Source: Thermodesulfobacteriota bacterium (GTDB taxonomy: Bacteria; Desulfobacterota; Desulfobacteria; Desulfobacterales; B30-G6). From it: a DNA stretch of 64,000 nt. The notes under the pieces were generated by a model that worked only from the letters and a program-made list of their open reading frames with translations, was not told the DNA's origin and ran no database searches. The stretch lies in assembly GCA_039714495.1 (NCBI GenBank), contig JBDLJD010000002.1, forward strand, positions 268 through 64,267, read 5' to 3'. The translations under genes were made by a program, and so were the position numbers. How positions within the stretch are numbered: position 1 is the first letter of the stretch; each line of letters begins with the position of its first letter. Below, piece after piece: positions 23,613 through 57,331 of the stretch.

Positions 23613-24947
23613 ATGGATTCTGCATTAATACCCAAAGGAGTTAAACGCTGTCCATTGCCGCAGTTCGGGGCTGCGCTAATGATCGTAGGTGCAGTGCTGC
23701 TGTGGGGCGTGTTTGCCTTACTGCTGGTTTGGTTTAAAGGACTCAATCAGACCAACATGAACAATGCCTATGGTTTTGCGCTGTGGATCTGGGCAGATCT
23801 AGGGGTTATAGCCCTGGGCGGTGGTGCATTTTTTACCGGTTTCCTGAAATATATCGTGGGTAAGGATGAACTGAAAAATATCATCAATTTCGCGGTTCTG
23901 ATCGGTTTTATCTGCTACAGTTCCGCCCTGCTCATCCTGGCCATCGACGTCGGTCAACCGCTAAGGAGCTGGTTCATCTTCTGGCATGCCAACGTGCACT
24001 CCATGCTGACCGAAGTGGCTTTCTGTCTCTCCTGCTACTTCGGCGTGCTCACTATCGAATACATACCGCTGATTCTGGAAAACCGGCAGGTCGACAAGGT
24101 CCCCTTCTTTCACAATCTCAGCCATAATATGCACGAAGTCATGGCTATATTTGCTGCAACCGGCGCCTTCCTCTCCTTTTTTCACCAGGGCTCGCTGGGC
24201 GGCGTGGCCGGCGTCATGTTCGGGCGGCCGTTCGGGTTCAGGGAGCACATCCTGATCTGGCCCTATTCATTTTTTCTATTCACCTGGTCGGCCGCAGCAT
24301 GCGGACCGTGCTTTACCATTTTTGTGACCAAGCTGACGGAAAAGATCGCCGGGAAAAAGCTGGTCAAAGACAATGTGATAGAGCTTCTGGCAAAAATTTC
24401 AGGTTGGATGCTGTTCACCTACATCATCGCCAAGAGCATCGACACCATCTACTGGGCCAATGTTACCGTGCCTTCCATGGGCCACACCCTGATGGATTTC
24501 TACTCCAACAACCCGGGCTCGGTCTACGGTATATGGATGCTGATCGCCGAGATCGGGGTCTGCGGCCTGCTGCCGGCCGTTATTCTCATTACCGAAAAGG
24601 GTCGGAAAACGCCGGCATTGCTGTGGACCGCCGTTATTTTGGCCTCCATCGGTGTGCTGCTCAACAGATGGGTCATGGTCCTGCAGGTAATGGCGGTTCC
24701 CGTGCTGCCTTTTGAGACCTGGAATAGGTATTTTCCCAGTTGGCAGGAGATCGCAACAACCATACTTCCCGTGGCTTACGGCGTTATCCTGTTGATGATA
24801 TCATATAGATATTTGCCGATTTTTCCCCAAGAGGCCGAGCTCAATCCCATCGAAGAGCCTGATCCGGCGCCGGCGATGGAAGCAGAGGGGGATGCGGAAG
24901 CCGTTGAAATAGCACAGGACGCCGAACTTGCTCCGGCAAAAGGATAG
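23613..24947 (+). CDS. qrcD: NrfD/PsrC-family integral membrane quinone-interacting subunit, QrcD-like
   Basis: 444 aa with about 10 predicted TM helices. It occupies the NrfD-like position after the FeS subunit. Confidence 0.8.
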   Translation: MDSALIPKGVKRCPLPQFGAALMIVGAVLLWGVFALLLVWFKGLNQTNMNNAYGFALWIWADLGVIALGGGAFFTGFLKYIVGKDELKNIINFAVLIGFICYSSALLILAIDVGQPLRSWFIFWHANVHSMLTEVAFCLSCYFGVLTIEYIPLILENRQVDKVPFFHNLSHNMHEVMAIFAATGAFLSFFHQGSLGGVAGVMFGRPFGFREHILIWPYSFFLFTWSAAACGPCFTIFVTKLTEKIAGKKLVKDNVIELLAKISGWMLFTYIIAKSIDTIYWANVTVPSMGHTLMDFYSNNPGSVYGIWMLIAEIGVCGLLPAVILITEKGRKTPALLWTAVILASIGVLLNRWVMVLQVMAVPVLPFETWNRYFPSWQEIATTILPVAYGVILLMISYRYLPIFPQEAELNPIEEPDPAPAMEAEGDAEAVEIAQDAELAPAKG

Positions 24948-36300: not shown

Positions 36301-39921
<3,621 letters not shown>

Positions 39922-44764: not shown

Positions 44765-44796
44765 GAAAAAAAGGCCCTGCTGAATAGCAGGGCCTT
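44765..44796 (-). terminator. Rho-independent terminator of dsrC
   Basis: On the minus strand the stem AGGCCCTGC-TATTCA-GCAGGGCCT is followed by TTTTTTT. It lies 41 nt after the dsrC stop. Confidence 0.8.
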
Positions 44797-44836
44797 TATC
44801 GTCTTTAGATCCAGTAACTGAACACTGTTGTGCGGA

Positions 44837-45154
44837 TTACACACATCCGGTCGGTTTCGGAAGACCGGCCATCTTACAGGCTCCCTTGCCCGGGCCTGAG
44901 GGGAACAGCTCATAGATGTGTTTCAGTTTGAAACCGGTAACCTTGGAAAGAACGCGAACCATAGGTGCGATACCATTCTTTTCGTAGTACTCTCTCAGAA
45001 CGGTAATAACTTTCTGATGCTCGTCGTTCAATTCTTCAATACCTTCTTCCTTTTTGACCAACTGAACCCATTCTTGGCTCCAGTTTTCATAGGAATCGAT
45101 AAATCCATCTTCATCAACACTGAAAGTTTTTCCCTGAAATTCTACTTCTGGCAT
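44837..45154 (-). CDS. dsrC: DsrC (dissimilatory sulfite reductase-associated protein; TusE/DsrC family with both C-terminal Cys)
   Basis: 105 aa ending ...GKGACKMAGLPKPTGCV, with the penultimate Cys and the Cys 11 residues upstream. Strong RBS AAAGGAGGG. Confidence 0.9.
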   Translation of the reverse strand: MPEVEFQGKTFSVDEDGFIDSYENWSQEWVQLVKKEEGIEELNDEHQKVITVLREYYEKNGIAPMVRVLSKVTGFKLKHIYELFPSGPGKGACKMAGLPKPTGCV

Positions 45155-45427
45155 TTAATAACCCTCCTTTAATATGATTATTCCTTCTGTGGCCTTTTGA
45201 GCCTTGACTTCGATTGTAAAAATATAACTAATAGTTGATATGATACCTATTGTCAACACGAAAAAATGTGTCCCCTATGCCGGGCTTTACTATAAAATAT
45301 TGTAATAATATTAGTATGTTAAAATAAGACTCTCTTTATTTGCCTTAAAATATAAGCACGAAAACACCAAACGTCAAAATCATAATTACTTAAATGGGTT
45401 CAGCTCAGTTTCCTGCTGTCGGGCAGC

Positions 45428-46282
45428 CTAATATTCCTTGGGTGTCTTATTGATCTGGTCCAGGGTGAAAACAGGGCCGTCTTTACACACCAGCTCTTTG
45501 CCGATACCGCAGCGGCCGCACATGCCGAACCCGCACTTCATTCTGTTTTCCAGGGACATGATGATGTGGTCATGGGCATATCCCAGTTTTTCCAGAACCG
45601 GAAGGGTGAATTTGATCATGATCGGCGGACCGCAGACAATGGCATAGGTATCGTCGTCACCCTGGGGCGCCTTCTGCTCGGTGATCGGGGGGGTGAACCC
45701 CACGTTGTATTCCCACCCTTCGGACGGGGCGTCGATGGTCAGGTGCATGTTGATGTCATCCCGTTTTTCCCATGCGACCAGTTCATCCTTGTACAGCAGC
45801 ATACCCGGTGTCCGGGCACCGTACACCACATCGATATCCCCGAACCTGGAACGATTTTCCGGATCGAGCATGTAAACGATGGAGGAGCGCAGGGTGGTAA
45901 AGGCAAATCCGCCGCCGACGATGAGGATGTTCTTGCCCTCGAGAAGGTCCCAGGGATACCAGTTGCCCATGGGGCCCCGGATGCCCATGATATCGCCCTC
46001 TTGCATGTTGTGAAGGTGGGAGGTGACGACACCTGCCTTGAAAACGGTGAATTTGACAAAGCCTTTTTCCACGGGCGAAGAGGCAATGCCGATGGGGATT
46101 TCGCCGATGCCGGGAACAGAGAGTTCGGCGAACTGACCGGCCTCATAAGCAAACTTCTCTTCGTCACCATCGTTCAGGAAGACAAATTTAAATGTTTTAA
46201 GACTTTTATCCTCTGTTGCCACCTCGATGTCATCGATGCGAACCGGATAAGGTACATAGGGGTTTAACACGTGATCCTCCAT
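45428..46282 (-). CDS. FAD/NAD(P)-binding, [2Fe-2S] oxidoreductase subunit (AsrB / PyrK / sulfhydrogenase-gamma-like)
   Basis: 284 aa with a ferredoxin-reductase-type FAD and NAD fold (ILIVGGGFAFT) and a C-terminal CGFGMCGRCGIGKELVCKDGP cluster motif. Confidence 0.8.
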   Translation of the reverse strand: MEDHVLNPYVPYPVRIDDIEVATEDKSLKTFKFVFLNDGDEEKFAYEAGQFAELSVPGIGEIPIGIASSPVEKGFVKFTVFKAGVVTSHLHNMQEGDIMGIRGPMGNWYPWDLLEGKNILIVGGGFAFTTLRSSIVYMLDPENRSRFGDIDVVYGARTPGMLLYKDELVAWEKRDDINMHLTIDAPSEGWEYNVGFTPPITEQKAPQGDDDTYAIVCGPPIMIKFTLPVLEKLGYAHDHIIMSLENRMKCGFGMCGRCGIGKELVCKDGPVFTLDQINKTPKEY

Positions 46283-46286
46283 CTAC

Positions 46287-47351
46287 TTATTCATTTACCG
46301 CGCAGGTCGCCTCTGCGGCATTGTAACTGTTCATCAGGTTGCAGACCCTGCGAATGTCGATGTTGACCGGGCATTGACTGACGCAGCGGCCGCACCCGAC
46401 ACACATGATGCCTTTATCGTATTTGTCCACAAAATATTTCAATTTATGCATGAAGCGTTGCCGCACCCGCTGGGTCTTGGTGCCTCTGGGATTGTGTCCG
46501 GTGGTGTGCACAGTGAACAAGGGGAACATGCAGCTGTCCCAGTTTTTCATTCTTTTGCCCGCTTTGCCGTGCACTTCGTCCTGAAGGTCGAAGCACCAGC
46601 AGGTGGGGCAGGTGTAGGTGCATGTACCGCAGTTGAGACAGGCAAAGGCAACATCTTCCCAAAAGGAGGCGCCGTGCAGCTCCATCAGGTCCTGGTTTTT
46701 CAGGTTGTCCATTTCAACGGTGGAGGTGATCTTGGCCTCGGCTGCCTCTTTTCTGGTTTCAATCTCTGCAGCGTCCCCGGCGGGGGTGTCCCAGCCGGCA
46801 GCTTCGGTTAAAGCCTTTCCTTTGTCAGTCAGCACCTTGGCCAGATAGTGGTCGCCGCCCTCTATCAGGAGTACGTCCAGCCCCTCTTCGTTGTAGGGTC
46901 CGCATCCCGTGGAGGTGCAAAAACAGGTGTTTCTGGGTTCGTCGCAGGCCAGTCCGACAAATGTCGTGGCTTCCAGGGCCTTAACCCAGTACGGGTCCTG
47001 GTATTCAGACGTATCGAAGTTCAGGTTCACCAAGGTGACTGCTTTGGCATCACAAGGCCGTATCCCCAGAACCGCCCGGGGAGAGCTGTCCTTCTCAACG
47101 GGTTTCATGATGTGGTGGTCTTCATCATTCTCATCCAGGCTGTATTCGATGATGGTGTCGGATTGCGGGAAAAGAATCGCTTTGGGGGAAAGCCGGGAGT
47201 TGGCAAAACCGAGCTCCGGTTGCTCCCCGGCATCCAGGGATGTAAAGCTGTAGTAATCCTTCTCCTTTGCCGGCCCGAACAGATGGTAGGCTTTCTGGAG
47301 TGCCTCCAGCCCTTTGTCCCACTGCTTTTTGTCGATTTTTACTAACGTCAT
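46287..47351 (-). CDS. 4Fe-4S dicluster subunit (AsrA / sulfhydrogenase-beta-like)
   Basis: 354 aa containing CLNCGTCTYTCPTCWCFD and CVGCGRCVSQCP. It lies 4 nt upstream of the AsrB-like gene. Confidence 0.75.
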   Translation of the reverse strand: MTLVKIDKKQWDKGLEALQKAYHLFGPAKEKDYYSFTSLDAGEQPELGFANSRLSPKAILFPQSDTIIEYSLDENDEDHHIMKPVEKDSSPRAVLGIRPCDAKAVTLVNLNFDTSEYQDPYWVKALEATTFVGLACDEPRNTCFCTSTGCGPYNEEGLDVLLIEGGDHYLAKVLTDKGKALTEAAGWDTPAGDAAEIETRKEAAEAKITSTVEMDNLKNQDLMELHGASFWEDVAFACLNCGTCTYTCPTCWCFDLQDEVHGKAGKRMKNWDSCMFPLFTVHTTGHNPRGTKTQRVRQRFMHKLKYFVDKYDKGIMCVGCGRCVSQCPVNIDIRRVCNLMNSYNAAEATCAVNE

Positions 47352-47370
47352 AATAAGTATGCCTTTTTAA

Positions 47371-48318
47371 TTAACGTATAAAATCATCCGGATCGTCTGG
47401 ACGGTATGTATCCAGAGGCGGCCTTACATCCAGGGTCAGGCCGGCTTCCCAACCGAACTGTTCAAAACTGTCTTTCTCAAGTTTTTGGGTGAACACCCGC
47501 ATGTTGATGCCCACCGGGCAGGCGCGCTCGCATGCGCCGCAGTCCGTGCACCGTCCTGCACAGTGAAAGGCCCTTAGAAAATGGAAGGTTCTGACATCGG
47601 TCGGGTCCTGCCCTTTGCCGACCCACTGGGGTTTGGATTCGTCCACAAAGCAGGTAGGGCAGTAGCAGAGGGGACAGGCATTCTTGCAGGCATAGCAGCG
47701 GATGCACGGAGAAAGGAGTTCCTCGAAGAAGTTCCACTTATCTTCAGGGTTCAGGGCCTCGATTTTCCGGACATCCTCGTAGCGGTCCACGTCCTTTTGT
47801 TCCTCCACCGGGTCGGTCACCATTTCGTCGAAAATGACCGGGTTGCGGTGGATGCAAACCGCACAGTTTTTCTGCAGGACATCGGCTTTGTCAAGTTCGT
47901 TCGCTTTACCGTCGACAGTTACCGTAATTTTCTGACCGCTTTCGGCCACATCCTGAATCTCACCGTCGAACATGGCATTGATCTTGTGCTTGTCGATCAT
48001 GCCCTGGCAGGGAACACCGATAATGTAAAGCTGTTCCCGGCTGATTTTGTTCTCGATGATATGGGTGACGATGTTGCGCGTATCGCACCCCTTGGCGATG
48101 ATGCCGATCTTTTCCGCGCGGTTGGTCAGGTAATTGGCCAGGTTGATACCGCAGTTGCTGTCCCAGACGAGCTGCGCTGTATCTTCCGCATTGTTGATGA
48201 AGCAGGGTTCGTTCATCATGGGCATGCTCCCCTTGCGGAACCCGATGACCATGTCCACCTGGCACTCCTTGAGCAGCCGGGCGGATATCTCTTTAATCTT
48301 ATCGTTGTATTCTGACAT
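47371..48318 (-). CDS. FrhB/FdhB-like iron-sulfur flavoprotein-type subunit
   Basis: 315 aa with an N-terminal FrhB-like region and C-terminal CIRCYACKNACPLCYCPTC plus CTDCGACERACP. Confidence 0.65.
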   Translation of the reverse strand: MSEYNDKIKEISARLLKECQVDMVIGFRKGSMPMMNEPCFINNAEDTAQLVWDSNCGINLANYLTNRAEKIGIIAKGCDTRNIVTHIIENKISREQLYIIGVPCQGMIDKHKINAMFDGEIQDVAESGQKITVTVDGKANELDKADVLQKNCAVCIHRNPVIFDEMVTDPVEEQKDVDRYEDVRKIEALNPEDKWNFFEELLSPCIRCYACKNACPLCYCPTCFVDESKPQWVGKGQDPTDVRTFHFLRAFHCAGRCTDCGACERACPVGINMRVFTQKLEKDSFEQFGWEAGLTLDVRPPLDTYRPDDPDDFIR

Positions 48319-48319
48319 G

Positions 48320-48751
48320 TTATGCTACCTTGGCCTCGTGCTTGGCAAAATGCGTGTTCGGTCCCAGGGCTCTAACCTTTTCCGTAACTTCCTTGACCAC
48401 CTCCACAAATTTAGTGGATTCGGCCGAAGAGATCCACGAGTAGTGAATCCGGTCCGGTTCGATGCCCATGTGTTCCATGAGGTTTTTAAACAGCGAGAAT
48501 TTCCGACGAGCGTAGTAATTACCTTCCAGGTAATGGCATTCGCCGGGATGTCACCCGGACACCCAGACGCCGTCGGCGCCTTCCCTGAGAGCGGCCATGG
48601 CGAACTTGGGGCTCATGCGGCCGCTGCAGGGGATCCGGATGACCCGGATGTTGGAGGGGTACTCCATCCGGCTGACGCCTGCCAGGTCGGCAGCGCCGTA
48701 GCTGCACCAGTTACAAAGGAAACTGACGATTTTCGGTTCCCATTCTGACAT
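48320..48751 (-). CDS. mvhD: MvhD-type (methyl-viologen-reducing hydrogenase delta / FlpD) protein with in-frame UGA (selenocysteine)
   Basis: [25 protein letters not shown]...[12 protein letters not shown](48551-48553)[18 protein letters not shown]...HEAKVA. The reading frame and family similarity continue for 76 codons after the TGA, which replaces the first Cys of the GGCHxGDCHY motif. The start at 48751 follows AAGGAG; 48775 is an alternative. Confidence 0.8.
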
Positions 48752-48913
48752 TGTTGTAATCTCCTTCTCTGACATTTGATCTGTTTCCGCTGCCGTCCAG
48801 CCGATTGGATCAAACCATTTTATTTACAAAGTCCGAGGATTCTATGATTAGAGTGTTGGTAGCCGATGCGTTTTACTTGAAACCTTGGCCCCGCGACCCC
48901 TTGAATCCTGTAA

Positions 48914-51900
48914 TTAGACCGCTTCGTTCATGGCAAAAATCTGTGCAAAAATCTGGTCGTTGTCAAATCCCTTCAGCTTGATGGCGCCGGAGCGGCAGGA
49001 AGCCACGCAAAGGCCGCAGCCTTTGCACAGGACCGGGTTGATCTTAGCCTTGCCTGTGAATGGACCTTCCTCGATAAATGCCGGTGCCGAATAGGGGCAG
49101 ATGGAAACACACACCGCACATGAGCTGCAGTTCATGGGCACGGTTTCGGCAATGGTTCCGCTGGTGTGGATCGTTTCACGCGCCAGCAGCGTGACCGCTC
49201 TGGATGCCGCCGCTCTTCCCTGGACCACGGACTCGTCTATGGGTTTGGGGTAGTGGGCCAGGCCGCACAGGAACACACCATCGGTGGCAAATTCCGAAGG
49301 ACCGAGCTTGGCGTGCTTTTCCACGAAAAAGCCGTCATCATTCAGTGACACCTTGAAAAAGTTGGCCAGAGCCTCGTCCTTGTTGGGCACCACGGCCGAG
49401 GCCAGGGTAACAAGGTCGGTTGCGATTTCCAACGGCCGCCCCAGCACATGGTCGGTCACCGTAATTTTAATCTCACCGTTGTCCAGGTCAAGCACCGGTT
49501 TATTGTCGACGGCGTAGCGGACAAAAATGATGCCTTTTTCACGGGCTTCCCGGTAGATATACTCGCGTTCACCGTAGGTGCGGATGTCCCGGTATAGAAT
49601 GTAAACGCTCATTTCCGGGTTGGTTTTTTTCAGTTCCAGGGCGTTGTCAATGGAATGCGTGCAGCAGACCTTGGAGCAGTATGGCCGTTCCGGTTCCCTT
49701 GATCCCACGCACTGGATAAAGACTGCCGACTTTAGCTCTTTCAGGGCAGGATCCTTGTCCATGAATTTGCGATCAAGTTCCAGGCTGGTCAGGATACGCG
49801 GGTCGTCTCCATAGTGATACTCCCGGGGCTTGAGAGCTGAGGCACCGGTGGCCACGACAGCCACGCCGTGTTCCAGTTCCGTTTCCTTACCGTCAGCAGC
49901 CAGCGTAGCCTTGAAGCTGCCCACAAAGCCTTCAACGTTTTTAAGCTCAGTACTCAGGTGCACATGGATATTTTCATTCTGGTCGACATCGGCGATGAGA
50001 TGGGACAGTTTTTCCTGAACATCGTCGCCCGAAATCGTTCTGAACAGGTTGAGGGCCTGACCACCCAGTGCATCGCTTTTTTCCACGATGTGGGTTTCAT
50101 ACCCATGTTGGGCCAGGGTCGAGGCCGCACTCATGCCGGCGATGCCGCCGCCGATGATCATGGCGGTTTGGTTGACTTGCAGTTCCGCTTCCTCCAAGGG
50201 CTGCATGAGCGCCACCTTGGAGACGGCCATACGTACCAGGTCTTTGGCTTTTTCCGTGGCCATGTCTGGGTTGTTTTTGTGGACCCAGGAGTCTTGGTTA
50301 CGGATGTTGCACATCTCGAAAAGGTATTTGTTGAGCCCTGCATTGATCAAGGTTTCCTGAAACAAAGGTTCGTGGGTTTTCGGTGTACAAGCCGCCACCA
50401 CCACCCGGTTCAGGTTTTTCTGCTTGATGATCTGGGTCATGGTCTCCTGGGTGTCCTGGGCACAGGAGTATAGATTGTCCGAAAAATATTCCACATAGGG
50501 CAGGGTTGCTGCATAATCACGGACGGCCGGTACATCCACCACACCGGCGATGTTGATGCCGCAGCGGCAGACGAACACGCCGATACGGGGGCGTTCGCCG
50601 AAAACGTTGGTTTCCGGAACAACTTCGGGGGTCAGGGTTCGGGTGTTGCGGGCCGCGCTCAGCACTGCGCCTGCGCTGCCGGCTGCTGCACTGGCGTCGA
50701 TGACCGATTGGGGGATATCCTTGGGGCCCTGAAAGGCGCCGCAAACATAGATACCCTTTTGGGATGTTTCCACCGGCTCGAAGGTCTCTGTTTTACAGAA
50801 ATTGCCCTCGGTCAGCTCAATGTCCAGCTTTTTGGCCAGGGCTACGGTTTCAGGGTTGGTCTGCAGGCCGATGGAGAGGACGACCTGGTCGAATGTTTCG
50901 TTTTGCAGTTCGCCCGACTCCGTGACATAGCGTACCGACAGGTCATCGGATCCGGCTACCGGGTCAATGGTGTGCACCCGGCTGCGCACGAAGCGCACGC
51001 CCTTTTCCTGGGCATTGTTGTAGAAGCGTTCAAAATCTTTGCCATGGGTGCGCATGTCCATGTAAAATATGGTACACTCCAGATCATCGCCGGCATGTTC
51101 CTTGGCGATGACGGATTCCTTAATGGCATACATGCAGCAGACCGAAGAACAATAGGAATTGTCGCACCGGTTGAGATCCCGGGAGCCCACGCATTGAAAC
51201 CAGGCGATCTTTTTGGGTTCCTTGTGATCGGATGGGCGCACCAGATGACCCCCTGTAGGGCCTGATGCCGACAGGATCCGCTCCATCTCCATGGAGGTGA
51301 TCACGTTCGGGTGGTTGGCATAGTTGTAGGAATCGAATTTGGACGGGTCAAAGGGCTCAAATCCGGGGGCCAGAATGATGGATCCCACTTCGAGCTCCAC
51401 AATCTCGTCTTCCATGGTGTGGTCAATGGCGTCAACCCCGCAGAATTCCGTACAGACCTTGCAGCCGCCTGTTTTGAAATGCACACAGACATCCCGGTCA
51501 ATGGCCGGGGTGTTGGGCACGGCCTGGGCATAGGGCACATAAACCGGCTTTCTGCCATTGAGGCCCATGTCGTATTCGCTGGGAATCGGCTGGACATCCT
51601 TGTGGCGGGTGATTATTTCGTTGATCTTTTCAAGGGTGATGTGACCGGTGGGGCAGACCGAGGCGCAGGCGCCGCAGGCCATGCAGACATCGCTCTGGAG
51701 GTGATAAGGCGTGTCCACCTTCATCTCCACCCCCCTGCCGGTGAGGCTGATGGCGCTGTTGCCCATGCGTTCGCACATGCGTACGCACAGTCCACAAAGA
51801 ATGCAGTCGTCGCCCTCGGTTTTGAAGCGCGGTTTTTCTATGCCGTACTCTTTAGCAAGCTTTTTCAGCATGGGGACGTCGGGGCACCTCGCCAGGAGCA

Positions 51901-52171
51901 GTTCCACGATCAGCTTGCGCCCCTGGTGAACCGCTTCGGAATCGGTGGTGATCTCCATACCCTCCCAGATGGGGTAGTTGCAGGCGGTTACGAACCGGCT
52001 CCTGCGGCCGTCAAAAAGCTCTACCGTGCAGAGGCGGCACATACCGGCCGGCTCCAGTGCCTTGTGGTGGCACATGGTCGGGATATCGACACCGTATTTT
52101 TCAGCGACCTGAAGGATGTATTGCCCTTCTTCGCCTTGAACTGTTTTGCCGTTGAGCTTAAACGTGATCAT
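48914..52171 (-). CDS. 1085-aa fusion of three parts: a NuoG/FdhA-type N-terminus ([2Fe-2S] + 2x[4Fe-4S]), the C-terminal part of an HdrA FAD domain, and a complete second HdrA-like unit
   Basis: Residues 1-190 are MITFKLNGK...CHHKALEPAGMCRLC...CILCGLCVRMC...CMACGACASVCP. Then come the HdrA-like GSIILAPGF...WFQCVGSRD...YCSSVCCMYAIKE...CGAFQGPKDI. The second unit is IGVFVCRCGINIAG...IIGGGIAGMSAA...FIQCVGSRE...CSKVCCTHS...CSSCAVCVSICP...CKGCGLCVASC. Confidence 0.85.
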   Translation of the reverse strand: MITFKLNGKTVQGEEGQYILQVAEKYGVDIPTMCHHKALEPAGMCRLCTVELFDGRRSRFVTACNYPIWEGMEITTDSEAVHQGRKLIVELLLARCPDVPMLKKLAKEYGIEKPRFKTEGDDCILCGLCVRMCERMGNSAISLTGRGVEMKVDTPYHLQSDVCMACGACASVCPTGHITLEKINEIITRHKDVQPIPSEYDMGLNGRKPVYVPYAQAVPNTPAIDRDVCVHFKTGGCKVCTEFCGVDAIDHTMEDEIVELEVGSIILAPGFEPFDPSKFDSYNYANHPNVITSMEMERILSASGPTGGHLVRPSDHKEPKKIAWFQCVGSRDLNRCDNSYCSSVCCMYAIKESVIAKEHAGDDLECTIFYMDMRTHGKDFERFYNNAQEKGVRFVRSRVHTIDPVAGSDDLSVRYVTESGELQNETFDQVVLSIGLQTNPETVALAKKLDIELTEGNFCKTETFEPVETSQKGIYVCGAFQGPKDIPQSVIDASAAAGSAGAVLSAARNTRTLTPEVVPETNVFGERPRIGVFVCRCGINIAGVVDVPAVRDYAATLPYVEYFSDNLYSCAQDTQETMTQIIKQKNLNRVVVAACTPKTHEPLFQETLINAGLNKYLFEMCNIRNQDSWVHKNNPDMATEKAKDLVRMAVSKVALMQPLEEAELQVNQTAMIIGGGIAGMSAASTLAQHGYETHIVEKSDALGGQALNLFRTISGDDVQEKLSHLIADVDQNENIHVHLSTELKNVEGFVGSFKATLAADGKETELEHGVAVVATGASALKPREYHYGDDPRILTSLELDRKFMDKDPALKELKSAVFIQCVGSREPERPYCSKVCCTHSIDNALELKKTNPEMSVYILYRDIRTYGEREYIYREAREKGIIFVRYAVDNKPVLDLDNGEIKITVTDHVLGRPLEIATDLVTLASAVVPNKDEALANFFKVSLNDDGFFVEKHAKLGPSEFATDGVFLCGLAHYPKPIDESVVQGRAAASRAVTLLARETIHTSGTIAETVPMNCSSCAVCVSICPYSAPAFIEEGPFTGKAKINPVLCKGCGLCVASCRSGAIKLKGFDNDQIFAQIFAMNEAV

Positions 52172-52192
52172 TTTTTATTCCTTCATGAAAAT

Positions 52193-54124
52193 TTAGCAAA
52201 TAGCAATTGCATTGAATTTACACGCGTCGTAGCAGATGCTGCACTTGATGCAGAGTTCCTGGTCCAGGGTGTGCGGCTTTTTCTTGTCGCCGCTGATGGC
52301 GTCCTGCGGGCATTTGCGGGCACAGACGTGACAGCCGTTACAGGCTTCGGCATCGATTTCATAATGGAAAAGGGCCTTGCAGACGCCTGCCGGACATTTT
52401 TTGTCCCTGATGTGCGCTTCATACTCGTCCCGAAAATAAAGAATCGTTGTCAGGACCGGATTCGGAGCTGAGGTTCCCAGACCGCACAGGGAGAACTTCT
52501 GAATCATACTGCCCAACTCTTCCAGAAGTTCGATGTCCCCTTCCTTACCGTTGCCGGCGCAGATATCGGTCAGGATATCCAGAACCTGCTTTATGCCTTC
52601 ACGGCAGGGGTTGCACTGCCCGCAGGACTCCTCCTTGAGGAAATCCATGAAGTAGCGGGCCACATCCACCATGCAAGTATCCTGGTCCATGGCAATCATG
52701 CCACCGGAGCCCATGATGGAACCTACTTCGGCCAGTTTCTGATAGTCCACCGGCAGGTCCATGAAGCGTTCGGGGATGCACCCGCCCGACGGGCCGCCGG
52801 TCTGAATCGCCTTGAATCGTTTCTTTTTGGGAATACCTCCGCCGATGGTGAATGCGATTTCCTTCAGGGAAATGCCCATGGGTACTTCCACCAAGCCGGT
52901 GTTCTTGATCTTGCCCACCAGGCTGAAGACCTTGGTGCCCTTGCTGTGGTCCGTGCCCATGCCGGCATACCACTCGGCGCCTTGGAGCACGATGGCGGGA
53001 ACGTTGGCATAGGTTTCCACATTGTTGAGGTTCGTGGGGCCTTCGCGGAACCCTTTTTCCACAGTGTGCACGTACTTGGCTCTGGGGCGGCCGACATTGC
53101 CTTCCAGGGAGGCCATCAAAGCGGTGGATTCACCGCAGACAAAAGCTCCGGCCCCGGTGGAAATCTTGATGTTGAAACTGTAGTCCGTACCGGCGATGTT
53201 GTCTCCCAAAAGGCCGCAGGCTTCGGCCTGCTTTATGGCGGTTACCAGCCGTTTGACCGCCAGGGGATACTCGTTGCGCACATAAATGTAACCCTGGCGG
53301 GAACCGATGGCATAGCCGGCGATCAGCATGCCCTCCAGCACGCTGTGCGGGTCTCCTTCCAGGATGCTCCTGTCCATGTAGGCGCCCGGGTCCCCTTCAT
53401 CCGCGTTGCAGATGATGTACCGGTCGCCGTCGTGTTTGGCACAGGTAGCCCACTTGATGCCGGTGGGGAACCCGCCGCCGCCCCGGCCCCTCAAGCCCGA
53501 TGCCTTGATGGTTTCCAGGATTTTTCCCGGTTCCGAGTGCTCGAGCATCTGTAGCAACGCCCGGTAGCCCTTTTTGGCAATGTATTCTTCGATGCAGTCC
53601 GGGTCGATATACCCGCAGTTGCGCAAGGCGATTTTTACCTGACCTTTATAAAAAGGTATGTCTTCCAAGAATGGGATGGCTTCAAAGGGTTCGACCTTGC
53701 CCATAGGATTGTCAATCTCCGCTTCCAGAATGGACCGGGGATCGCGCATTTGGCCGAGGATCCATTTTTTCTTGGAGAGGCCGTTTTGGTAGTCGTCAAC
53801 CGCGTCCAGAATTTTGTCCGGAGTAATGTTTTTATACATCACCCTGGGGCGGCCGTTGGTCAGGATTTCGACCAGGGGCTCCATTTCGCAGTATCCGATG
53901 CATCCCGTCTGGCTGACCTGGATCGCCCTGTCCGCTGCGAAAGCTTCAGCAGCGGTTTTGAATGCCGCTTCGGCGCCGGCGGCAATACCACAGGAGGCCA
54001 TGCCGATGTTCACTTTTATGGAATCCGGGTAGTAAAGGCTGGTGCTGTATTCCCGGGTAATCTTTTCTAAGTCTTTTACAGACTGGATTTTCATGATTTT
54101 AGCCTCTTCAACGTCTTTATTCAT
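52193..54124 (-). CDS. NuoF/HydB/HndC-like NAD(P)H-binding FMN iron-sulfur flavoprotein
   Basis: 643 aa. It has an N-terminal thioredoxin-like [2Fe-2S] region, the NuoF core (GRGGGGFPTGIKW, NADEGDPGA, ESCGQCNPCREG) and a C-terminal 2x[4Fe-4S]. Confidence 0.9.
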   Translation of the reverse strand: MNKDVEEAKIMKIQSVKDLEKITREYSTSLYYPDSIKVNIGMASCGIAAGAEAAFKTAAEAFAADRAIQVSQTGCIGYCEMEPLVEILTNGRPRVMYKNITPDKILDAVDDYQNGLSKKKWILGQMRDPRSILEAEIDNPMGKVEPFEAIPFLEDIPFYKGQVKIALRNCGYIDPDCIEEYIAKKGYRALLQMLEHSEPGKILETIKASGLRGRGGGGFPTGIKWATCAKHDGDRYIICNADEGDPGAYMDRSILEGDPHSVLEGMLIAGYAIGSRQGYIYVRNEYPLAVKRLVTAIKQAEACGLLGDNIAGTDYSFNIKISTGAGAFVCGESTALMASLEGNVGRPRAKYVHTVEKGFREGPTNLNNVETYANVPAIVLQGAEWYAGMGTDHSKGTKVFSLVGKIKNTGLVEVPMGISLKEIAFTIGGGIPKKKRFKAIQTGGPSGGCIPERFMDLPVDYQKLAEVGSIMGSGGMIAMDQDTCMVDVARYFMDFLKEESCGQCNPCREGIKQVLDILTDICAGNGKEGDIELLEELGSMIQKFSLCGLGTSAPNPVLTTILYFRDEYEAHIRDKKCPAGVCKALFHYEIDAEACNGCHVCARKCPQDAISGDKKKPHTLDQELCIKCSICYDACKFNAIAIC

Positions 54125-54620
54125 ATTGGTCTAAAATGCGGTCTATTTCGTCGGATGCGATGCGGCCGTGCATGTCTTCGTTGATTTTCACGACCGGCCC
54201 CAGGCTGCAGCAGCCGATACAGCGCACGGATTCCAGGGTGAAGCGCTGGTCTTCCGTGGTCTGGCCATCGTTGATCTCCAGGTTTTCCTGGATGCGTTCC
54301 CGTACCCTCTCGCCGCCGCGCACGTGGCAGGCGGTGCCGAGGCAGATGGAAATGATGTTGCGCCCCCTGGGTTCCAGGCTGAAGGTGCTGTAGAAGGTGG
54401 CCACACCGTATATTTTGCTGTAGGGAATGCCGATTTTGGCGGAAAGATAGTTCAGCGCCGGTTGGGGTAGATAATTGTACTTGCGCTGTATGGCCTGAAG
54501 GATCATGATCAGATTTTCTTTGTTGTTGCCGAATTCATCCTCGATAATGGTGTCGAGTTCCATAAAATCGACTTCTGTTTCAATATGTTGATCGCTTTCC
54601 AGCGGAATAGCTTGGTTCAT
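54117..54620 (-). CDS. NuoE/HndA-like thioredoxin-fold [2Fe-2S] subunit
   Basis: 167 aa containing ICLGTACHVRGG and VRCIGCCSLGPVV. It overlaps the NuoF-like start by 8 nt. Confidence 0.9.
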   Translation of the reverse strand: MNQAIPLESDQHIETEVDFMELDTIIEDEFGNNKENLIMILQAIQRKYNYLPQPALNYLSAKIGIPYSKIYGVATFYSTFSLEPRGRNIISICLGTACHVRGGERVRERIQENLEINDGQTTEDQRFTLESVRCIGCCSLGPVVKINEDMHGRIASDEIDRILDQYE

Positions 54621-54676
54621 GGGACCATCTCCGAATCAAATCATGTGAATTTTGGTTGTATGTCTTAAAAGGCTGC

Positions 54677-55063
54677 TCAGCAATTTGCGGGCAATTGCAC
54701 CACAGGGCAGTTCTCCACGCAGGCGCCGCATCCGGTGCAGAGATCCATGTTGATGCTTCGGGCGCGCTTTTTAACTTTTACTTTAAAATTGCCTGATTCG
54801 CCTTCGACAGATTCAAGATCTGCATATGTGATAAGCTCGATGTTCAGATGCCGGCCGACCTCGACCAGTACAGGGGAAATAATTCACATCGCGCAGTCAT
54901 TGGTGGGAAAGGTCTTGTCCAGTTGCGACATGACGCCACCTATGGAGGGGGATTTCTCAAGAAGGTAAACATAGTACCCGGAATTTGCCAGGTCGAGCGC
55001 GGACTGCATTCCGGCGATACCACCACCGACAACCAGTACCGAACCGATTACATCCTTTGCCAT
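54677..55063 (-). CDS. 128-aa stand-alone HdrA N-terminal fragment with in-frame UGA (selenocysteine)
   Basis: ATG at 55063 follows AGGAGA. The product is [62 protein letters not shown](54884-54886)[68 protein letters not shown]. Stop TGA is at 54677-54679. I translated the 68 post-UGA codons by hand and found no other stop. Confidence 0.75.
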
Positions 55064-55225: not shown

Positions 55226-55269
55226 AAAACTAGAACAGCCTGACCGGTTGGTCAGGCTGTTCTAGTTTT
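55226..55269 (-). terminator. Strong rho-independent terminator after the double-receiver gene
   Basis: Perfect 20-bp stem AAAACTAGAACAGCCTGACC-GGTT-GGTCAGGCTGTTCTAGTTTT with T-runs on both strands. Confidence 0.8.
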
Positions 55270-55290: not shown

Positions 55291-56955
55291 TTAAGCAGCT
55301 AAGTGGAGCGCCTTCTCCGTGGCATTGCGAATTTCATCCGGCGTAAACGGCTTGGGCAGGTAATCGACGGCGCCCATGCGCGTGGCCTCCACAGCAGTCT
55401 CGATACTGGCGTAGCCGGTGATCATGATGACCTTGGCTTCGGGATTGTTGTCCCGGATGGCCTGGAGGAGTTCAAGCCCTTGCACCCCCGGTATCTTGAG
55501 ATCCAGCAGGATCAGCTTGTAGGGATGGGCCGCGATTCTTTCGAGGGCTTCTTCCTTGGTCACGGCCTGGTCCACCTGATAGTCATTTTTAACCAGAATT
55601 TTACGGATATTGTTGTTGACCGCCACCTCGTCATCGATGACCAGAATGTTTTTGTGCACTGATTCCTTGGGGAATTCGTAAACATGGGCAGTGGGGGCGT
55701 CCTGCTCGGCCATCATGCGGGCGACATTCTGCTTCAGGGTTTCATAAGGGACCTGCACGATACCGTCATAAACCAGGTTTTCCACATAGGCAGTGCCGGT
55801 CACGGCCATAACTTCTTCGTAATTAAAGGGTTGGTCGATACCGATCAGCTTTTTGACATCATGGGTTTTTTGGGCCTTGGCCGCACGCTTTTTCTTAGCC
55901 AGTTGGGGGCACTTCTGGGTCTTGGTTCCAGCCTTGCAGGTGGCGCCCAGTTTTTTGAAGATGTCGCATACCATACTGCCCATCTCGCAGAAGCCTTCCA
56001 ACTGTTCCGATGCAGTGATTTCGATTACGGGCATGTCGGAGGACCCCAGGCTCTTGGCGTATTCTTCTCCGGTTACCTCGGCCACTTCATCACGGTCAAA
56101 GGGGATGTCCACGTCAATGGGTTTGCTTTCCAGAAAGCCGGCCACATTCTTTTTCAATTCCTCGTAGGGTATGTAGGACACGCCTTCATTCTGCATGGCG
56201 TAAACGTACTCGGGGCCGGTCACGGCCGCAACTTCCTCGTAATCAAAGGGCTGGTCAATGCCCACCAGCTTCTTGACGTCCGGCGTCTTCTTGGCCTTGG
56301 CAGCTCTTTTTTTCTTGGCCAGTTGGGGGCACTTCTGGGTCTTGTTGCCGGCCTTGCAGGTGGCGCCCAGCTTTTTGAAGATGTCGCACACCATGCTGCC
56401 CATTTCGCAGAAGCCTTCCAGGGGTTCCAAGGCCTTGACCTCGATGATGGGCATGCCGGAGGGCCCCAGGCTTTTGGCGTATTCCTCGCCGGTTACTTCG
56501 GCCACTTCGTCGGCATCAAAGGGCAGGTCAATGTCGATGGCGTTGATAGCTTCCCGCTCCTCTTTGCTAGTGGGGGCCTCATTGAGCTCGCCGTCCAGCG
56601 CCTTTTCTACCGTGTTGCGCAACTCATCCGGGGTAAACGGTTTTGGGATATAATCCAGGGCGCCCATCTTGATTGCCTTGACGGCCGTGTCCGTGGAGGC
56701 ATAGGCGGTCATCATCACAGCTTTGGTCAGGGGCCACTGCTCTTTGACCAGTTTGAGAAGTTCGAGCCCGTTTTTCCCGGGCATGACAATGTCTGAGATC
56801 AGCAGGGAAAAGGAATCCAAGGCCATTTTTTCCAGGGCCTCGTCTGCGCTCTCCGCGTGTACCACCTCATAGTTGCCTTTCTTGAGGATTTTTTCCACGT
56901 TGCTGCAGATGCTCTTTTCATCATCGACCACGATAATTTTCTGGGCTGCTTCCAT
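55291..56955 (-). CDS. Double receiver-domain protein with a central tandem 140-aa Cys4/Lys-rich repeat
   Basis: 554 aa. REC domains lie at both ends (IIVVDDE...ISDIVMPG...MMTAY...KPF and ILVIDDE...LLDLKIPG...MITGY...KPF). Between them are two about 85%-identical copies of IDxDxPFDxDEVAEVTGEEYAKSLG...EGFCEMGSMVCDIFKKLGATCKAGxKTQKCPQLAKKKRAAKAxKT...IDQPFxYEEVxAVTG. The DNA period is 420 nt (for example 55901 versus 56321). Confidence 0.85.
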   Translation of the reverse strand: MEAAQKIIVVDDEKSICSNVEKILKKGNYEVVHAESADEALEKMALDSFSLLISDIVMPGKNGLELLKLVKEQWPLTKAVMMTAYASTDTAVKAIKMGALDYIPKPFTPDELRNTVEKALDGELNEAPTSKEEREAINAIDIDLPFDADEVAEVTGEEYAKSLGPSGMPIIEVKALEPLEGFCEMGSMVCDIFKKLGATCKAGNKTQKCPQLAKKKRAAKAKKTPDVKKLVGIDQPFDYEEVAAVTGPEYVYAMQNEGVSYIPYEELKKNVAGFLESKPIDVDIPFDRDEVAEVTGEEYAKSLGSSDMPVIEITASEQLEGFCEMGSMVCDIFKKLGATCKAGTKTQKCPQLAKKKRAAKAQKTHDVKKLIGIDQPFNYEEVMAVTGTAYVENLVYDGIVQVPYETLKQNVARMMAEQDAPTAHVYEFPKESVHKNILVIDDEVAVNNNIRKILVKNDYQVDQAVTKEEALERIAAHPYKLILLDLKIPGVQGLELLQAIRDNNPEAKVIMITGYASIETAVEATRMGAVDYLPKPFTPDEIRNATEKALHLAA

Positions 56956-57015
56956 AATTTACCTCCGTTGTGCAAGAAAGGGATTTACAATTTCAAATGT
57001 TGTATTTGTAAGAAC

Positions 57016-57031
57016 TGCACGAGTTGTGCCA
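57016..57031 (-). promoter_or_regulatory. Sigma54 (-24/-12) promoter upstream of the double-receiver gene
   Basis: The minus strand reads TGGCACAACTCGTGCA, with GG and GC at the canonical spacing of TGGCACG-N4-TTGCW. It lies 61-76 nt upstream of the ATG at 56955, which has a GGAGGT RBS. Confidence 0.7.
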
Positions 57032-57106
57032 AGAAAAGATAAATTATATAACATGTTGATTTATAAACTGAAAAAGAAATTTAATCGCTTGTGTTAAGGC
57101 TTGTGG

Positions 57107-57125
57107 TGTATAATTAAATAATACA
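57107..57125. promoter_or_regulatory. Palindromic candidate enhancer-binding site TGTAT-N9-ATACA (proximal)
   Basis: TGTATAATTAAATAATACA lies about 80-95 nt upstream of the sigma54 promoter. It has the same half-sites and spacing as 57270-57288. Confidence 0.5.
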
Positions 57126-57269
57126 TTTTTTGGGGGTGGATTGTTATCACAATATCAGTCTGGTTGGTCTGTTGACAGCTCCGATGAGAAACTTATGGAA
57201 AACAACTAATTGGAATTAAAAGAAAAAAATTCAAAGAGGTGATCAGGGCAGGTGGCTTGACCGGGATTA

Positions 57270-57288
57270 TGTATAAAATAAATATACA
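57270..57288. promoter_or_regulatory. Palindromic candidate enhancer-binding site TGTAT-N9-ATACA (distal)
   Basis: TGTATAAAATAAATATACA lies about 240 nt upstream of the sigma54 promoter, just downstream of the activator gene. Confidence 0.5.
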
Positions 57289-57331
57289 TGTATCAAGTGA
57301 AAAATCGCAGTGGTTTGCCGCGGTGATATTT

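Follow-up and report, generated by a model that had tools for sequence, protein, structure and literature searches.

Which substrates are coupled by an enzyme system that is encoded in eight consecutive genes, joins parts of two kinds of bifurcating flavoenzyme, and ends beside dsrC? The question is raised by a 64-kb stretch of DNA (the window, to which all coordinates refer) from an uncultured sulfate-reducing Thermodesulfobacteriota bacterium of the order Desulfobacterales (B30-G6; GCA_039714495.1, contig JBDLJD010000002.1). Eight reading frames run consecutively on its minus strand from 55063 to 45428, separated in gene order by 56, -8, 21, 162, 1, 19 and 4 nt, and a further 273 nt lead to dsrC. 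An initial annotation of the window had described the same eight co-directional genes, with gaps from -8 to about 160 nt, and had proposed that they encode a soluble NAD(P)H- and ferredoxin-coupled bifurcating or confurcating complex whose thiol-side partner could be DsrC. The coupled complex is supported by sequence tests for bifurcating NuoF-like subunits, by the retention of every cluster-ligand Cys in the HdrA units, by the likeness of the AsrA/AsrB-like pair to the NADP(H)-linked beta and gamma subunits of P. furiosus sulfhydrogenase I, and by conservation of the genes as a unit. DsrC as its partner is neither supported nor refuted. The eight products are tentatively read here as an oxidoreductase of three modules that may run an Nfn-like reaction of NAD(P)H, NAD+ and ferredoxin.

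The proteins of the window were compared with Pfam, NCBIfam and PDB sequences, and the domain calls for the eight products agree with the labels first given to them, one label holding in part (see below). In gene order, all on the minus strand, the operon begins with hdrA' (54677..55063), which encodes a 128-aa N-terminal fragment of HdrA. It continues with a nuoE-like gene for a [2Fe-2S] subunit (BfuC; 54117..54620), a nuoF-like gene for a 643-aa flavin mononucleotide (FMN)/NADH subunit of the bifurcating type (BfuB; 52193..54124), and a fusion gene (48914..52171) whose 1085-aa product joins a BfuA/NuoG/HydA-like N-terminus to HdrA sequence. An mvhD/flxD-like gene (48320..48751) for a [2Fe-2S] adaptor follows. 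The last three genes occupy the positions of flxC (47371..48318), flxB (46287..47351) and flxA (45428..46282), and encode a distantly FdhB/FrhB-like Fe-S protein of 315 aa, an Fe-S protein of 354 aa resembling AsrA and the sulfhydrogenase beta subunit, and a [2Fe-2S] protein of 284 aa that binds flavin adenine dinucleotide (FAD) and NAD(P)H and resembles AsrB, PyrK and the sulfhydrogenase gamma subunit. Thus the two pyridine-nucleotide/flavin modules reported at the outset, one NuoF-like with FMN and one AsrB/PyrK-like with FAD and NAD, are both present together with MvhD, and the operon indeed holds no HdrB/CCG gene, no hydrogenase large-subunit gene and no catalytic formate dehydrogenase (Fdh) gene.

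The NuoE- and NuoF-like pair is, by sequence criteria, a bifurcating-type Bfu core. BfuC matches PF01257 (E 4e-49) and the NuoE/HoxE models of NCBIfam. BfuB consists of an N-terminal thioredoxin-like domain, an FMN domain, the NuoF [4Fe-4S] domain and a C-terminal 2x[4Fe-4S] domain, with Pfam matches to PF01512, PF10589, PF10531 (weak) and two Fer4 motifs at residues 588-640. Its best PDB matches are all Bfu B subunits, with E values of about 1e-215 to 1e-177 (7t2r_B, 3e-215 in a full-length alignment; 9bov_B, 7e-213; 8oh5_B, 7q4v_B and 9n5u_B). The relatives matched include the NiFe-HydB of A. mobile, NfnABC of C. saccharolyticus, StnABC of S. ovata, and several HydB proteins. Residues C484, C522, H571, C577 and C582 align with C438, C476, H525, C531 and C536 of 7t2r_B, and sections of the work by Schut et al. 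name C438, C476/T, H525, C531 and C536 as the B2-cluster ligands of A. mobile HydB (PMC9304861). According to the same sections, the B2 His and the C-terminal 2x[4Fe-4S] domain are absent from non-bifurcating NuoF homologues (PMC9304861). Because the NuoF-like protein carries both this C-terminal domain and all five B2 ligands, it is assigned to the bifurcating type. The third Bfu component forms residues 1-190 of the fusion protein, a BfuA/NuoG/HydA-like stretch with one [2Fe-2S] and 2x[4Fe-4S] centers. Pfam places a Fer2_4 domain and two Fer4 motifs in residues 1-186, the ligand Cys residues are invariant, and the closest PDB chain is the 247-aa 'NuoG-like' 9mqx_A (1.5e-41), alongside HydA N-termini.

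Two HdrA-type flavin units had been counted in the initial annotation. Two are present, but neither is complete: one is split across two genes, and the domain losses of the two are complementary. The 128-aa HdrA' matches residues 145-258 of HdrA 5odc_A (E 1e-42), residues 142-256 of 8rvv_A, and positions 138-256 of the HdrA2 profile NF040770. It contains the FAD-binding GxGxxG motif, a selenocysteine (Sec60) at the position of Cys197, and the first CxxCxxCxxxCP motif of the inserted ferredoxin domain. The rest of unit 1 lies at about residues 195-525 of the fusion protein, where residues 195-400 correspond to 5odc_A 259-458, that is, to the second half of the inserted ferredoxin domain and the thioredoxin-reductase-like domain. 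Unit 2 occupies about residues 526-1085. Its residues 526-758 align with 5odc_A 2-235 and comprise the N-terminal cluster domain and the FAD motif, with the Cys197-motif stretch replaced by Cys-free sequence, while residues 893-1081 align with the C-terminal ferredoxin domain (5odc_A 461-649). In the PDB alignment, unit 1 is without the N-terminal and C-terminal ferredoxin domains and unit 2 is without the Cys197 motif and the inserted ferredoxin domain, so that the N-terminal cluster domain, the Cys197 equivalent and the inserted and C-terminal ferredoxin domains each occur once per HdrA pair. The thioredoxin-reductase-like FAD domain is found in both units, with GxGxxG in the 128-aa protein and at fusion residues 674-679. 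Its [4Fe-4S] motif is invariant in both (C327/341/345/346 and C821/832/836/837 of the fusion protein). All 36 predicted cluster-ligand Cys residues of the fusion protein show no variation, either among 48 sequences drawn from many phyla or among 120 close homologues.

Complementary loss of Cys197 and of the N-terminal domain has been read by Chadwick et al. as the mark of an obligate asymmetric HdrA pair (PMC9012536). In HdrA of M. wolfeii, one protomer's Cys197 serves as a ligand to the other's N-terminal cluster, and this cluster is on the low-potential path to the inserted ferredoxin domain (PMC9012536). As the losses seen here match that heterodimer logic, units 1 and 2 are taken to form a pseudo-heterodimer, in which Sec60 of HdrA' would, by analogy, be a ligand of the N-terminal [4Fe-4S] cluster of the partner unit. 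An AlphaFold model of the fusion protein, built on the homologue alignment, is on the whole confident, with a predicted local distance difference test (pLDDT) score of 81 and a predicted template modelling (TM) score (pTM) of 0.73, and its top Foldseek matches are HdrA chains with target-normalised TM-scores of 0.75-0.79.

The break in hdrA falls exactly between HdrA residues 258 and 259, inside the inserted ferredoxin domain; in the DNA, these two residues are separated by nuoE, nuoF and the part of the fusion gene that encodes the NuoG/HydA-like N-terminus. A search of 1.8 billion representative proteins reveals three related architectures: the fusion of ~1085 aa, unsplit double-HdrA proteins of ~950-1025 aa, and HdrL-type proteins of ~1320-1530 aa. 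The first ~130 residues of the unsplit proteins are the counterpart of the 128-aa protein (P0124, 59% identity). In the HdrL-type protein P0123, residues 1-121 are 68% identical to the 128-aa protein and are followed by Fer4_20 and Pyr_redox_2 domains, after which similarity resumes at fusion residue 235. The GltD/NfnB-like NAD(P)H domain of the HdrL type is therefore inserted at the same point of HdrA as the Bfu module here. BfuA is fused to HdrA in every full-length member seen, and in other phyla HdrA' often forms the N-terminal part of a NuoE fusion of 284-310 aa. In some lineage or other, each half of the inserted ferredoxin domain is thus covalently joined to a Bfu subunit, which argues for a hard-wired contact. 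Taken together, these proteins are good indirect evidence that the Bfu module would dock where free ferredoxin docks on canonical HdrA.

The last four genes resemble a known NAD(P)H dehydrogenase. Their order (mvhD, FdhB-like, AsrA-like, AsrB-like) is that of flxD-flxC-flxB-flxA, and the reference order in D. vulgaris is reportedly hdrCBA-flxDCBA. The MvhD-like product matches PF02662 (E 1.6e-54) and the VhuD model NF045873. The 315-aa protein had been labelled FrhB-like, a label that stands in part: it resembles FdhB (7bkb_E, E 5e-24) at residues 15-112 and 193-305 only, but the FrhB models of Pfam give no match, Pfam detects Fer4 families only, and the C-terminal dicluster domain is of the HdrC/Fer4_8 type. 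Proteins at the same position in four more distant loci (L085, L088, L089 and L091, described below) do match PF04432 (FrhB_FdhB_C). The 354-aa protein matches PF17179 (E 7e-33), the HydB/ShyB/AsrA models of NCBIfam, and 9nez_B over its full length (E 1e-37), and the 284-aa protein matches PF00970, PF00175, PF10418 and 9nez_C (E 5.5e-51). Among solved structures, this AsrA- and AsrB-like pair is closest to the beta and gamma subunits of sulfhydrogenase I from P. furiosus, which form the NADP(H)-linked diaphorase part of that enzyme.

The operon is conserved as a unit across the Desulfobacterales. A scan of GTDB species representatives lists 599 stretches, at least 587 of which encode relatives of the 1085-aa protein, and the neighbourhood survey that had been proposed for this protein was carried out on the best 80 of these at least 587 relatives, with flanks of up to 10 kb on each side. 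The 80 loci come almost entirely from the Desulfobacterales (Desulfosarcina, Desulfatitalea, Desulfonema, Desulfobacula, Desulfotignum, Desulfobacter and strain N47). Among loci of sufficient length, nearly all have the eight genes in the same order and orientation, at 70-93% identity of the fusion protein, and the operon occurs in at least several hundred species-level genomes. This arrangement lies far beyond chance. Four loci (L007, L017, L026 and L056) have the fusion gene but neither mvhD nor flx genes; three of them show hdrA', nuoE and nuoF upstream, the fourth (L056) starting too near the fusion gene to show them, and L017 and L026 carry an ORF (open reading frame) of ~1470 aa on the opposite strand downstream. 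These four may be paralogous copies with a different partner.

Two alternative NuoE/NuoF cassettes are found at the same position of the operon, one in 22 loci (L002, L003, L007, L020, L021, L028, L029, L031, L035 and others) and one in 41 other loci. Type A NuoE proteins are ~70-80% identical to that of the window and type B proteins 42-51%, and the N-terminal [2Fe-2S] motif of type B NuoF is CAGSGC...GCHGFC versus SCGIAAG...GCIGYC. Both types turn up intermingled among closely related fusion proteins, a pattern that suggests cassette replacement or recombination with a paralogue. Which cassette a locus carries is not correlated with whether it has flx genes.

Homologues of the fusion protein with the same architecture and 44-50% identity extend to Aminicenantes, Actinobacteria (Ca. 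Hydromicrobium), Phycisphaerae and other Planctomycetes, Bacteroidales, Dehalococcoidia and other Chloroflexota, WOR-3, Acidobacteria, Chitinispirillaceae and one Thermoplasmata archaeon. The core hdrA'-nuoE-nuoF-fusion-mvhD is present in at least ten lineages outside the Desulfobacterales. Twelve distant neighbourhoods (L081-L092) were compared by gene context with a tblastn check, and 10 of the 12 keep the hdrA' fragment, nuoE, nuoF, the fusion gene and mvhD. What surrounds this core varies. Genes for HdrC and HdrB (CCG domain) adjoin it in eight of the 12, an Mvh-type [NiFe] hydrogenase is present in five (after mvhD in L082-L084 and L092, upstream in L081), and an FrhB-like gene follows mvhD in four. 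In L091 the order is hdrC, hdrB, hdrA'::nuoE, nuoF, fusion, mvhD, FrhB-like, AsrA-like and AsrB-like, which is the operon of the window preceded by hdrCB. Both L081 and L084 have the Mvh hydrogenase and no hdrCB, which suggests that the core can run with only a donor, NAD and ferredoxin. The family therefore has a core that stays constant (HdrA pair, Bfu and MvhD), a donor module that can be exchanged (Mvh hydrogenase or Flx-like), and an HdrCB thiol branch that may be present or absent. Within it, the Desulfobacterales form would be a Flx-type derivative of a widespread family, its HdrCB branch apparently lost from the locus. The initial annotation had named invariable linkage to a hydrogenase, Fdh or hdrBC elsewhere as counting against its proposal; such linkage is largely what is seen outside the Desulfobacterales, and inside the order it is not seen.

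Other distant loci show further variants. In Aminicenantes and Phycisphaerae (L081:5006-8872 and L083:3102-6179) the NuoF-like protein is fused to a GltD/NfnB-like NAD(P)H domain, in products of 1288 and 1025 aa, which adds one more pyridine-nucleotide site to the same core. In Chitinispirillaceae (L090:9898-10509) genes of the DsrE family and of the TusA sulfur-carrier family, and a second mvhD, come after the core. This hints that sulfur-relay proteins may partner with the enzyme family in some lineages.

Two of the eight frames are not open in the standard code, a feature absent from the initial description of the genes. The frames 54677-55063 and 48320-48751 are interrupted by an in-frame TGA at codons 60 and 67, respectively, and both codons are assigned to selenocysteine on comparative evidence. 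The TGA of hdrA' (54884..54886, minus strand), at the Cys197-equivalent position, is kept in 59 of 59 homologous loci, and all distant relatives examined have TGT or TGC (Cys) instead. The TGA of mvhD (48551..48553, minus strand; context VSG-U-HPGECHY) is kept in 66 of 68 loci and is TGC in two (L052 and L054); among 11 aligned copies from distant loci the position is Cys in 10 and TGA in one, from Dehalococcoidia. Downstream of the hdrA' TGA, a 19-nt block, ACTGGTCGAGGTCGGCCGG, is nucleotide-invariant in 58 distinct sequences while adjacent wobble positions vary freely. Likewise, CATTACCTGGAAGGTAAT follows the mvhD TGA without variation in every TGA-bearing locus and is degenerate in exactly the two TGC loci, L052 and L054. 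Both blocks form short hairpins with G/U-containing loops at distances like those in SECIS (selenocysteine insertion sequence) elements. The hairpin of hdrA' (54851..54868, minus strand; stem CUGGUCG/CGGCCGG, loop AGGU) starts 19 nt from the U of UGA, and that of mvhD lies at 48518..48534 on the minus strand (stem AUUACC/GGUAAU, loop UGGAA). Single-sequence folds 3' of the two TGA codons are not significant (z = +1.0 and -1.0), so that the SECIS evidence rests on the comparative data. No tRNA-Sec or sel gene is found in the 64-kb window. As HdrA and MvhD are already known as selenoprotein families in deltaproteobacteria (D. multivorans, PMC5109826), selenocysteine here is expected biology. The stop codon of hdrA' (54677-54679) is also a TGA; read-through would add three residues before a TAA, and it is therefore treated as a true stop.

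The transcription signals bear on whether the eight genes form one operon. The tight or overlapping internal gaps favour this, as does the terminator scan, which finds none on the coding strand between the eight genes. A long, perfect hairpin with a T run, read from the sequence at 55226..55269 (minus strand), lies just 3' of the stop codon of an upstream gene for a 554-aa double-receiver protein; it is likely a terminator, which would set the 5' boundary of the transcription unit, and it is not listed by the consensus scan because its T run is inside the stem. The sequence AGGAG is located 8 nt 5' of the hdrA' ATG. The consensus promoter scan found no qualifying promoter upstream of hdrA', where a TTGACA at 55176-55171 is paired only with a poor -10 box. 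One of the conserved regulators encoded upstream is a sigma-54-dependent response regulator, yet a sigma-54 promoter for the operon was considered and rejected, since there is no -24/-12 element upstream of hdrA'. The sole good sigma-54-like match nearby (57016-57031) is 5' of the double-receiver gene, and window-wide such matches are no commoner than chance. An Rfam scan of 43-57 kb gave two sub-threshold chance matches only.

How would such an enzyme work? Coupling of NAD(P)H, NADH and ferredoxin, as predicted from the domains, is well supported by the parts present. Of the ways to arrange it, the one ranked first, though held tentatively and at rather less than even confidence, is that all the products assemble into a single soluble, cytoplasmic oxidoreductase with multiple flavins and [Fe-S] clusters, built of three modules and running an Nfn-like NAD(P)H/NAD+/ferredoxin reaction. 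It is ranked first because it needs nothing beyond the encoded parts. The first module would be a Flx-type NAD(P)H dehydrogenase of the AsrB-like, AsrA-like and FdhB-like subunits with MvhD. The second would be the HdrA pseudo-heterodimer, to which unit 1 (the 128-aa selenoprotein and the middle of the fusion protein) contributes the Sec residue and the inserted ferredoxin domain, unit 2 being the C-terminal half of the 1085-aa protein. The third would be the Bfu NADH/ferredoxin core, with the BfuA N-terminus fused onto the second half of the inserted ferredoxin domain of unit 1. Electrons from NAD(P)H would enter at FlxA and pass through the FlxB and FlxC clusters and MvhD to the C-terminal ferredoxin domain of unit 2 and the HdrA FAD. 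From there they would travel through the N-terminal cluster, with Sec60 as a ligand, the inserted ferredoxin domain made up of two polypeptides, and the BfuA clusters to BfuBC, with its FMN, NAD(H) site and ferredoxin site. Such an enzyme would bind its substrates at three sites (FlxA for NAD(P)H, the FMN of BfuB for NAD(H), and BfuB for ferredoxin) and, if FlxA uses NADPH, would catalyze a reversible Nfn-like reaction, as a 'Flx-Bfu' analogue of NfnABC/StnABC. In the Mvh-bearing relatives the hydrogenase would take the position of the Flx-like module, and those without HdrCB could run a HydABC-like reaction. As the locus has no HdrCB branch, coupling to a thiol or to DsrC would depend on a CCG-domain protein encoded in trans. 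The sequences show the gene structure, the domains and cofactor motifs, the selenocysteine recoding, the conservation and the modular pattern of the family; from these we infer that the products join in one complex, and likewise the route and direction of the electrons and the substrates.

Several points weigh against this proposal. With NADH as the substrate of the FlxA-like subunit, coupling the three substrates would be either thermodynamically pointless or uphill. The [4Fe-4S] cluster of the thioredoxin-reductase domain, the feeder of HdrC in Hdr, is retained in both HdrA units, which fits a retained high-potential outlet better than a plain wire for electrons. A pair of complete HdrA flavin sites would also be an elaborate means of simply conducting electrons. 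NfnAB is already present in many Desulfobacterales (D. multivorans, PMC5109826), and an internal promoter could lie in the 162 nt ahead of mvhD. Finally, fusion residues 126-248, which hold the junction cluster domains, are unreliable in the AlphaFold model (pLDDT below 50), part of this stretch needing the absent small subunit to fold.

The retained HdrC-feeding cluster also speaks for a DsrC-linked reductase, a possible though doubtful alternative in which NAD(P)H, or NADH plus reduced ferredoxin, would be coupled at the HdrA flavin to the reduction of oxidised DsrC (trisulfide or disulfide), the thiol chemistry being done by a CCG protein encoded elsewhere (HdrBC, HdrD or DsrK-type) or directly by the complex. 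The neighbouring dsrC (44837..45154, minus strand; 105 aa; PF04358, E 5e-36; TIGR03342) lies 273 nt past the operon and, as first described, encodes both redox-active C-terminal cysteines, C93 and C104 (C-x10-C; C-terminus ...GACKMAGLPKPTGCV). Of the 43 loci that extend far enough, 41 have it after flxA, and no coding-strand terminator lies between flxA and dsrC in the window; hdrCB is usual in the wider family, so that a thiol branch is common there; the DsrE and TusA genes of L090 come right after mvhD; and the gene order matches the hdrA-flxDCBA of Flx-Hdr, whose interaction with DsrC in D. vulgaris is reported in passages citing Ferreira 2023 (PMC10504309, PMC10553843). Against these stands the lack of a thiol-active subunit: five HdrB sequences used as tblastn queries match neither the 64-kb window nor the flanks of the 80 homologous loci, and the window has no CCG-motif ORF. 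The same searches reject an HdrB gene a few kb away. The adjacency itself may have a simpler cause. A sigma-70-type dsrC promoter is found at 45228..45256 on the minus strand (-35 TTGACA at 45256-45251, a 17-nt spacer, and -10 TATTAG at 45233-45228), and an intrinsic terminator after dsrC at 44770..44797 (minus strand; 12-bp stem, then a T run). Across homologues the flxA-dsrC spacer measures 111-322 nt (median 172) at 34% GC. The 42 aligned spacers have in common a tract rich in T, a perfect TTGACA followed after 17 nt by a TA-rich, -10-like hexamer, a short GC hairpin in the 5' untranslated region and a strong AAGGAGG ribosome-binding site; conservation is at least 80% in the -35 box and in the T tract upstream of it. 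Hence dsrC has its own promoter and is probably a separate transcription unit, read-through from the operon being possible and not required; an own promoter is expected for a very abundant protein such as DsrC. Unrelated neighbours are equally syntenic, namely the UPF0047 and AhbA/B-like genes downstream and the regulatory genes upstream, both largely so, and synteny inertia within one order therefore suffices to explain the position of dsrC. The linkage is missing from two of the 43 loci, which are among the most divergent (L079, labelled Desulfatiglandaceae, and L075), and from all 12 distant loci. A related scheme, a hard-wired two-stage bifurcation or confurcation, would send the low-potential branch of the Sec-containing HdrA to Bfu through the two-polypeptide ferredoxin domain and have the high-potential branch reduce DsrC without an operon-encoded HdrBC, by way of a CCG protein recruited in trans or of new chemistry; it is considered unlikely.

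Similar parts occur where HdrA and Bfu serve a separate catalytic enzyme, and by that token the operon could encode an electron input or output module for a partner located elsewhere, as BamDEFGHI does for the tungsten enzyme BamBC, with Bfu and HdrA in series producing or disposing of very-low-potential electrons. The parts do parallel BamE (HdrA-like, with Sec), BamF (MvhD-like, with Sec) and BamGHI (NuoEFG-like), as described in PMC5109826 and in sections of PMC9304861; 9mqx_A, the chain nearest to the fusion N-terminus, is NuoG-like; Desulfobacterales have many HdrA paralogues (PMC5109826); and the four loci without flx genes keep the core. Yet no BamB/aldehyde:ferredoxin oxidoreductase (AOR), BamC or BamD gene is linked to the operon in any of the 80 loci, the AOR gene of the window (5828-7792) is 37 kb off and paired with an iron-type alcohol dehydrogenase, and the conserved partner here is an NAD(P)H module that is itself a substrate site, which makes this arrangement improbable. 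More doubtful still would be two separate enzymes on one transcript, a Bfu-HdrA enzyme from the first four genes and an MvhD-Flx NAD(P)H oxidoreductase from the last four. The gap between the fusion gene and mvhD (162 nt here, ~20 to ~640 nt in homologues) would allow for it, and some loci hold the first four genes only. However, whichever donor module is present, almost every lineage has mvhD after the fusion gene, MvhD is an established HdrA-docking adaptor (PMC9012536), and unit 2 retains the C-terminal ferredoxin domain that receives electrons from MvhD.

The individual pieces (Flx-Hdr, HdrL, Bam-Bfu, fused HdrA heterodimers and Sec-containing HdrA and MvhD) are already known, and their combination here is a variant of the Flx-Hdr and Bam-type Bfu/HdrA systems. 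By gene order and domain content the operon is like FlxABCD-HdrABC of D. vulgaris and others, sharing the order hdrA-flxD(mvhD)-flxC-flxB-flxA (reportedly that of D. vulgaris), a FAD/NAD(P)H [2Fe-2S] FlxA, two Fe-S subunits, MvhD and a flavin-bearing HdrA. The proposed NADH/ferredoxin/DsrC coupling corresponds to the model of the initial annotation. In contrast to FlxABCD-HdrABC, hdrCB is absent here and in all 80 neighbourhoods, HdrA is split and fused, Bfu is inserted at the ferredoxin-interacting domain, and two subunits are selenoproteins. With BamDEFGHI of class II benzoyl-CoA reductase the operon shares the Bfu core, a Sec-containing HdrA-type subunit (BamE) and an MvhD-like one (BamF), going by sections of PMC9304861; BamE of D. 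multivorans contains selenocysteine (PMC5109826). The operon differs in being without the BamB/BamC tungsten enzyme and the CCG protein BamD, and in having an AsrA/AsrB/FdhB-like module, a BfuA-HdrA fusion and a split HdrA. In the sections covered, Schut et al. list Bam-Bfu as a Bfu enzyme with an HdrA module and propose two bifurcation modules in series (PMC9304861).

HdrL of sulfate reducers and syntrophs, and HdrA9-11 of ANME-1, carry a pyridine-nucleotide module at the same insertion point (PMC9012536, PMC5947623), but in HdrL this is a single GltD/NfnB-like domain within one polypeptide, whereas here the three-part Bfu is encoded as separate genes that break hdrA in two. In enzymes of the NfnABC/StnABC and HydABC types, BfuB and BfuC are close homologues of the proteins described here and the module for the third substrate feeds BfuBC through the BfuA clusters; here that module is remote, acting through two HdrA flavin units and MvhD and not through a domain of BfuA. 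Fused or tandem HdrAs (HdrA3/4 and HdrA5/6 of ANME, and MetFV-HdrABC-MvhD of Moorella) show the same complementary loss of Cys197 and the N-terminal domain (PMC9012536), but with a different unit order, and the Cys197-bearing unit here is split, Sec-containing and interrupted by Bfu. Unlike Mvh:Hdr complexes, the operon has no MvhA or MvhG gene next to mvhD.

Similar gene sets have been noted before. Units of nuoEFG-mvhD-hdrA were recorded in a Desulfotignum genome (PMC4046663). 'Flx-Hdr' operons are mentioned for Seep-SRB1 in portions of Murali et al. 2023 (PMC10553843), and these may be the same cluster, a provisional match. The 'Hdr/Flox' cluster Sfum_1969-1977 of S. fumaroxidans, with HdrD, Flox and two hdrA genes (PMC5947623), may have the same architecture with HdrD, the identities of Sfum_1975 and Sfum_1976 being provisional. 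No Flx- or Hdr-linked Bfu class appears in the covered sections of the classification by Schut et al. (PMC9304861). Searches of the open-access literature, a scope that leaves several key reviews outside, yielded no account of a Bfu-split hdrA, of the insertion point common with HdrL, or of the hdrCB-less, dsrC-adjacent form.

Upstream of the operon, three regulatory genes occupy 55291-60188 on the minus strand and encode a PAS histidine kinase (479 aa), a sigma-54-type response regulator (a 572-aa ORF) and the double-receiver protein (554 aa), the gene for the last being directly 5' of hdrA' in 32 of 44 loci with room. The annotated start of the response-regulator ORF overlaps the kinase by ~300 nt, so that its true start is probably further downstream. 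Elsewhere in the window, 19724-24947 encodes a Qrc-like set of a multihaem cytochrome c (220 aa), a molybdopterin-family protein with a twin-arginine translocation (TAT) signal (741 aa) and an NrfD-type membrane protein (444 aa), consistent with the quinone reductase complex of a sulfate reducer. At 5828-9578 the AOR (654 aa) stands beside a fusion of polyferredoxin and iron-type alcohol dehydrogenase (560 aa), and at 36364-39921 there is a pyruvate:ferredoxin oxidoreductase (1185 aa) which, like the AOR, is ferredoxin-linked.

An enzyme of this kind would not surprise specialists, but it is very widespread and uncharacterised. Desulfobacterales are described as key sulfate reducers of marine sediments (PMC5109826), and how NADH, NADPH and reduced ferredoxin from complete substrate oxidation are passed to the enzymes of sulfate reduction is poorly defined. 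The operon pairs two bifurcating kinds, the HdrA-type FAD and the Bfu-type FMN/cluster. For this pairing the Bam benzoyl-CoA reductase is the sole studied case cited, and bifurcation could not be demonstrated there. The gene architectures constrain the wiring, since the split falls at the ferredoxin-docking domain, the same point takes an NfnB-like insert in HdrL, the donor is swappable, and hdrCB is lineage-dependent. If the two-stage scheme were true, the Desulfobacterales would have a DsrC-reducing machine that links NAD(P)H and ferredoxin to sulfite reduction by a soluble route, its ferredoxin yield being adjustable. More generally, if DsrC is the partner, the operon would represent a soluble electron route to sulfite reduction, and if it is not, a new Nfn-like hub that balances the pyridine-nucleotide and ferredoxin pools.

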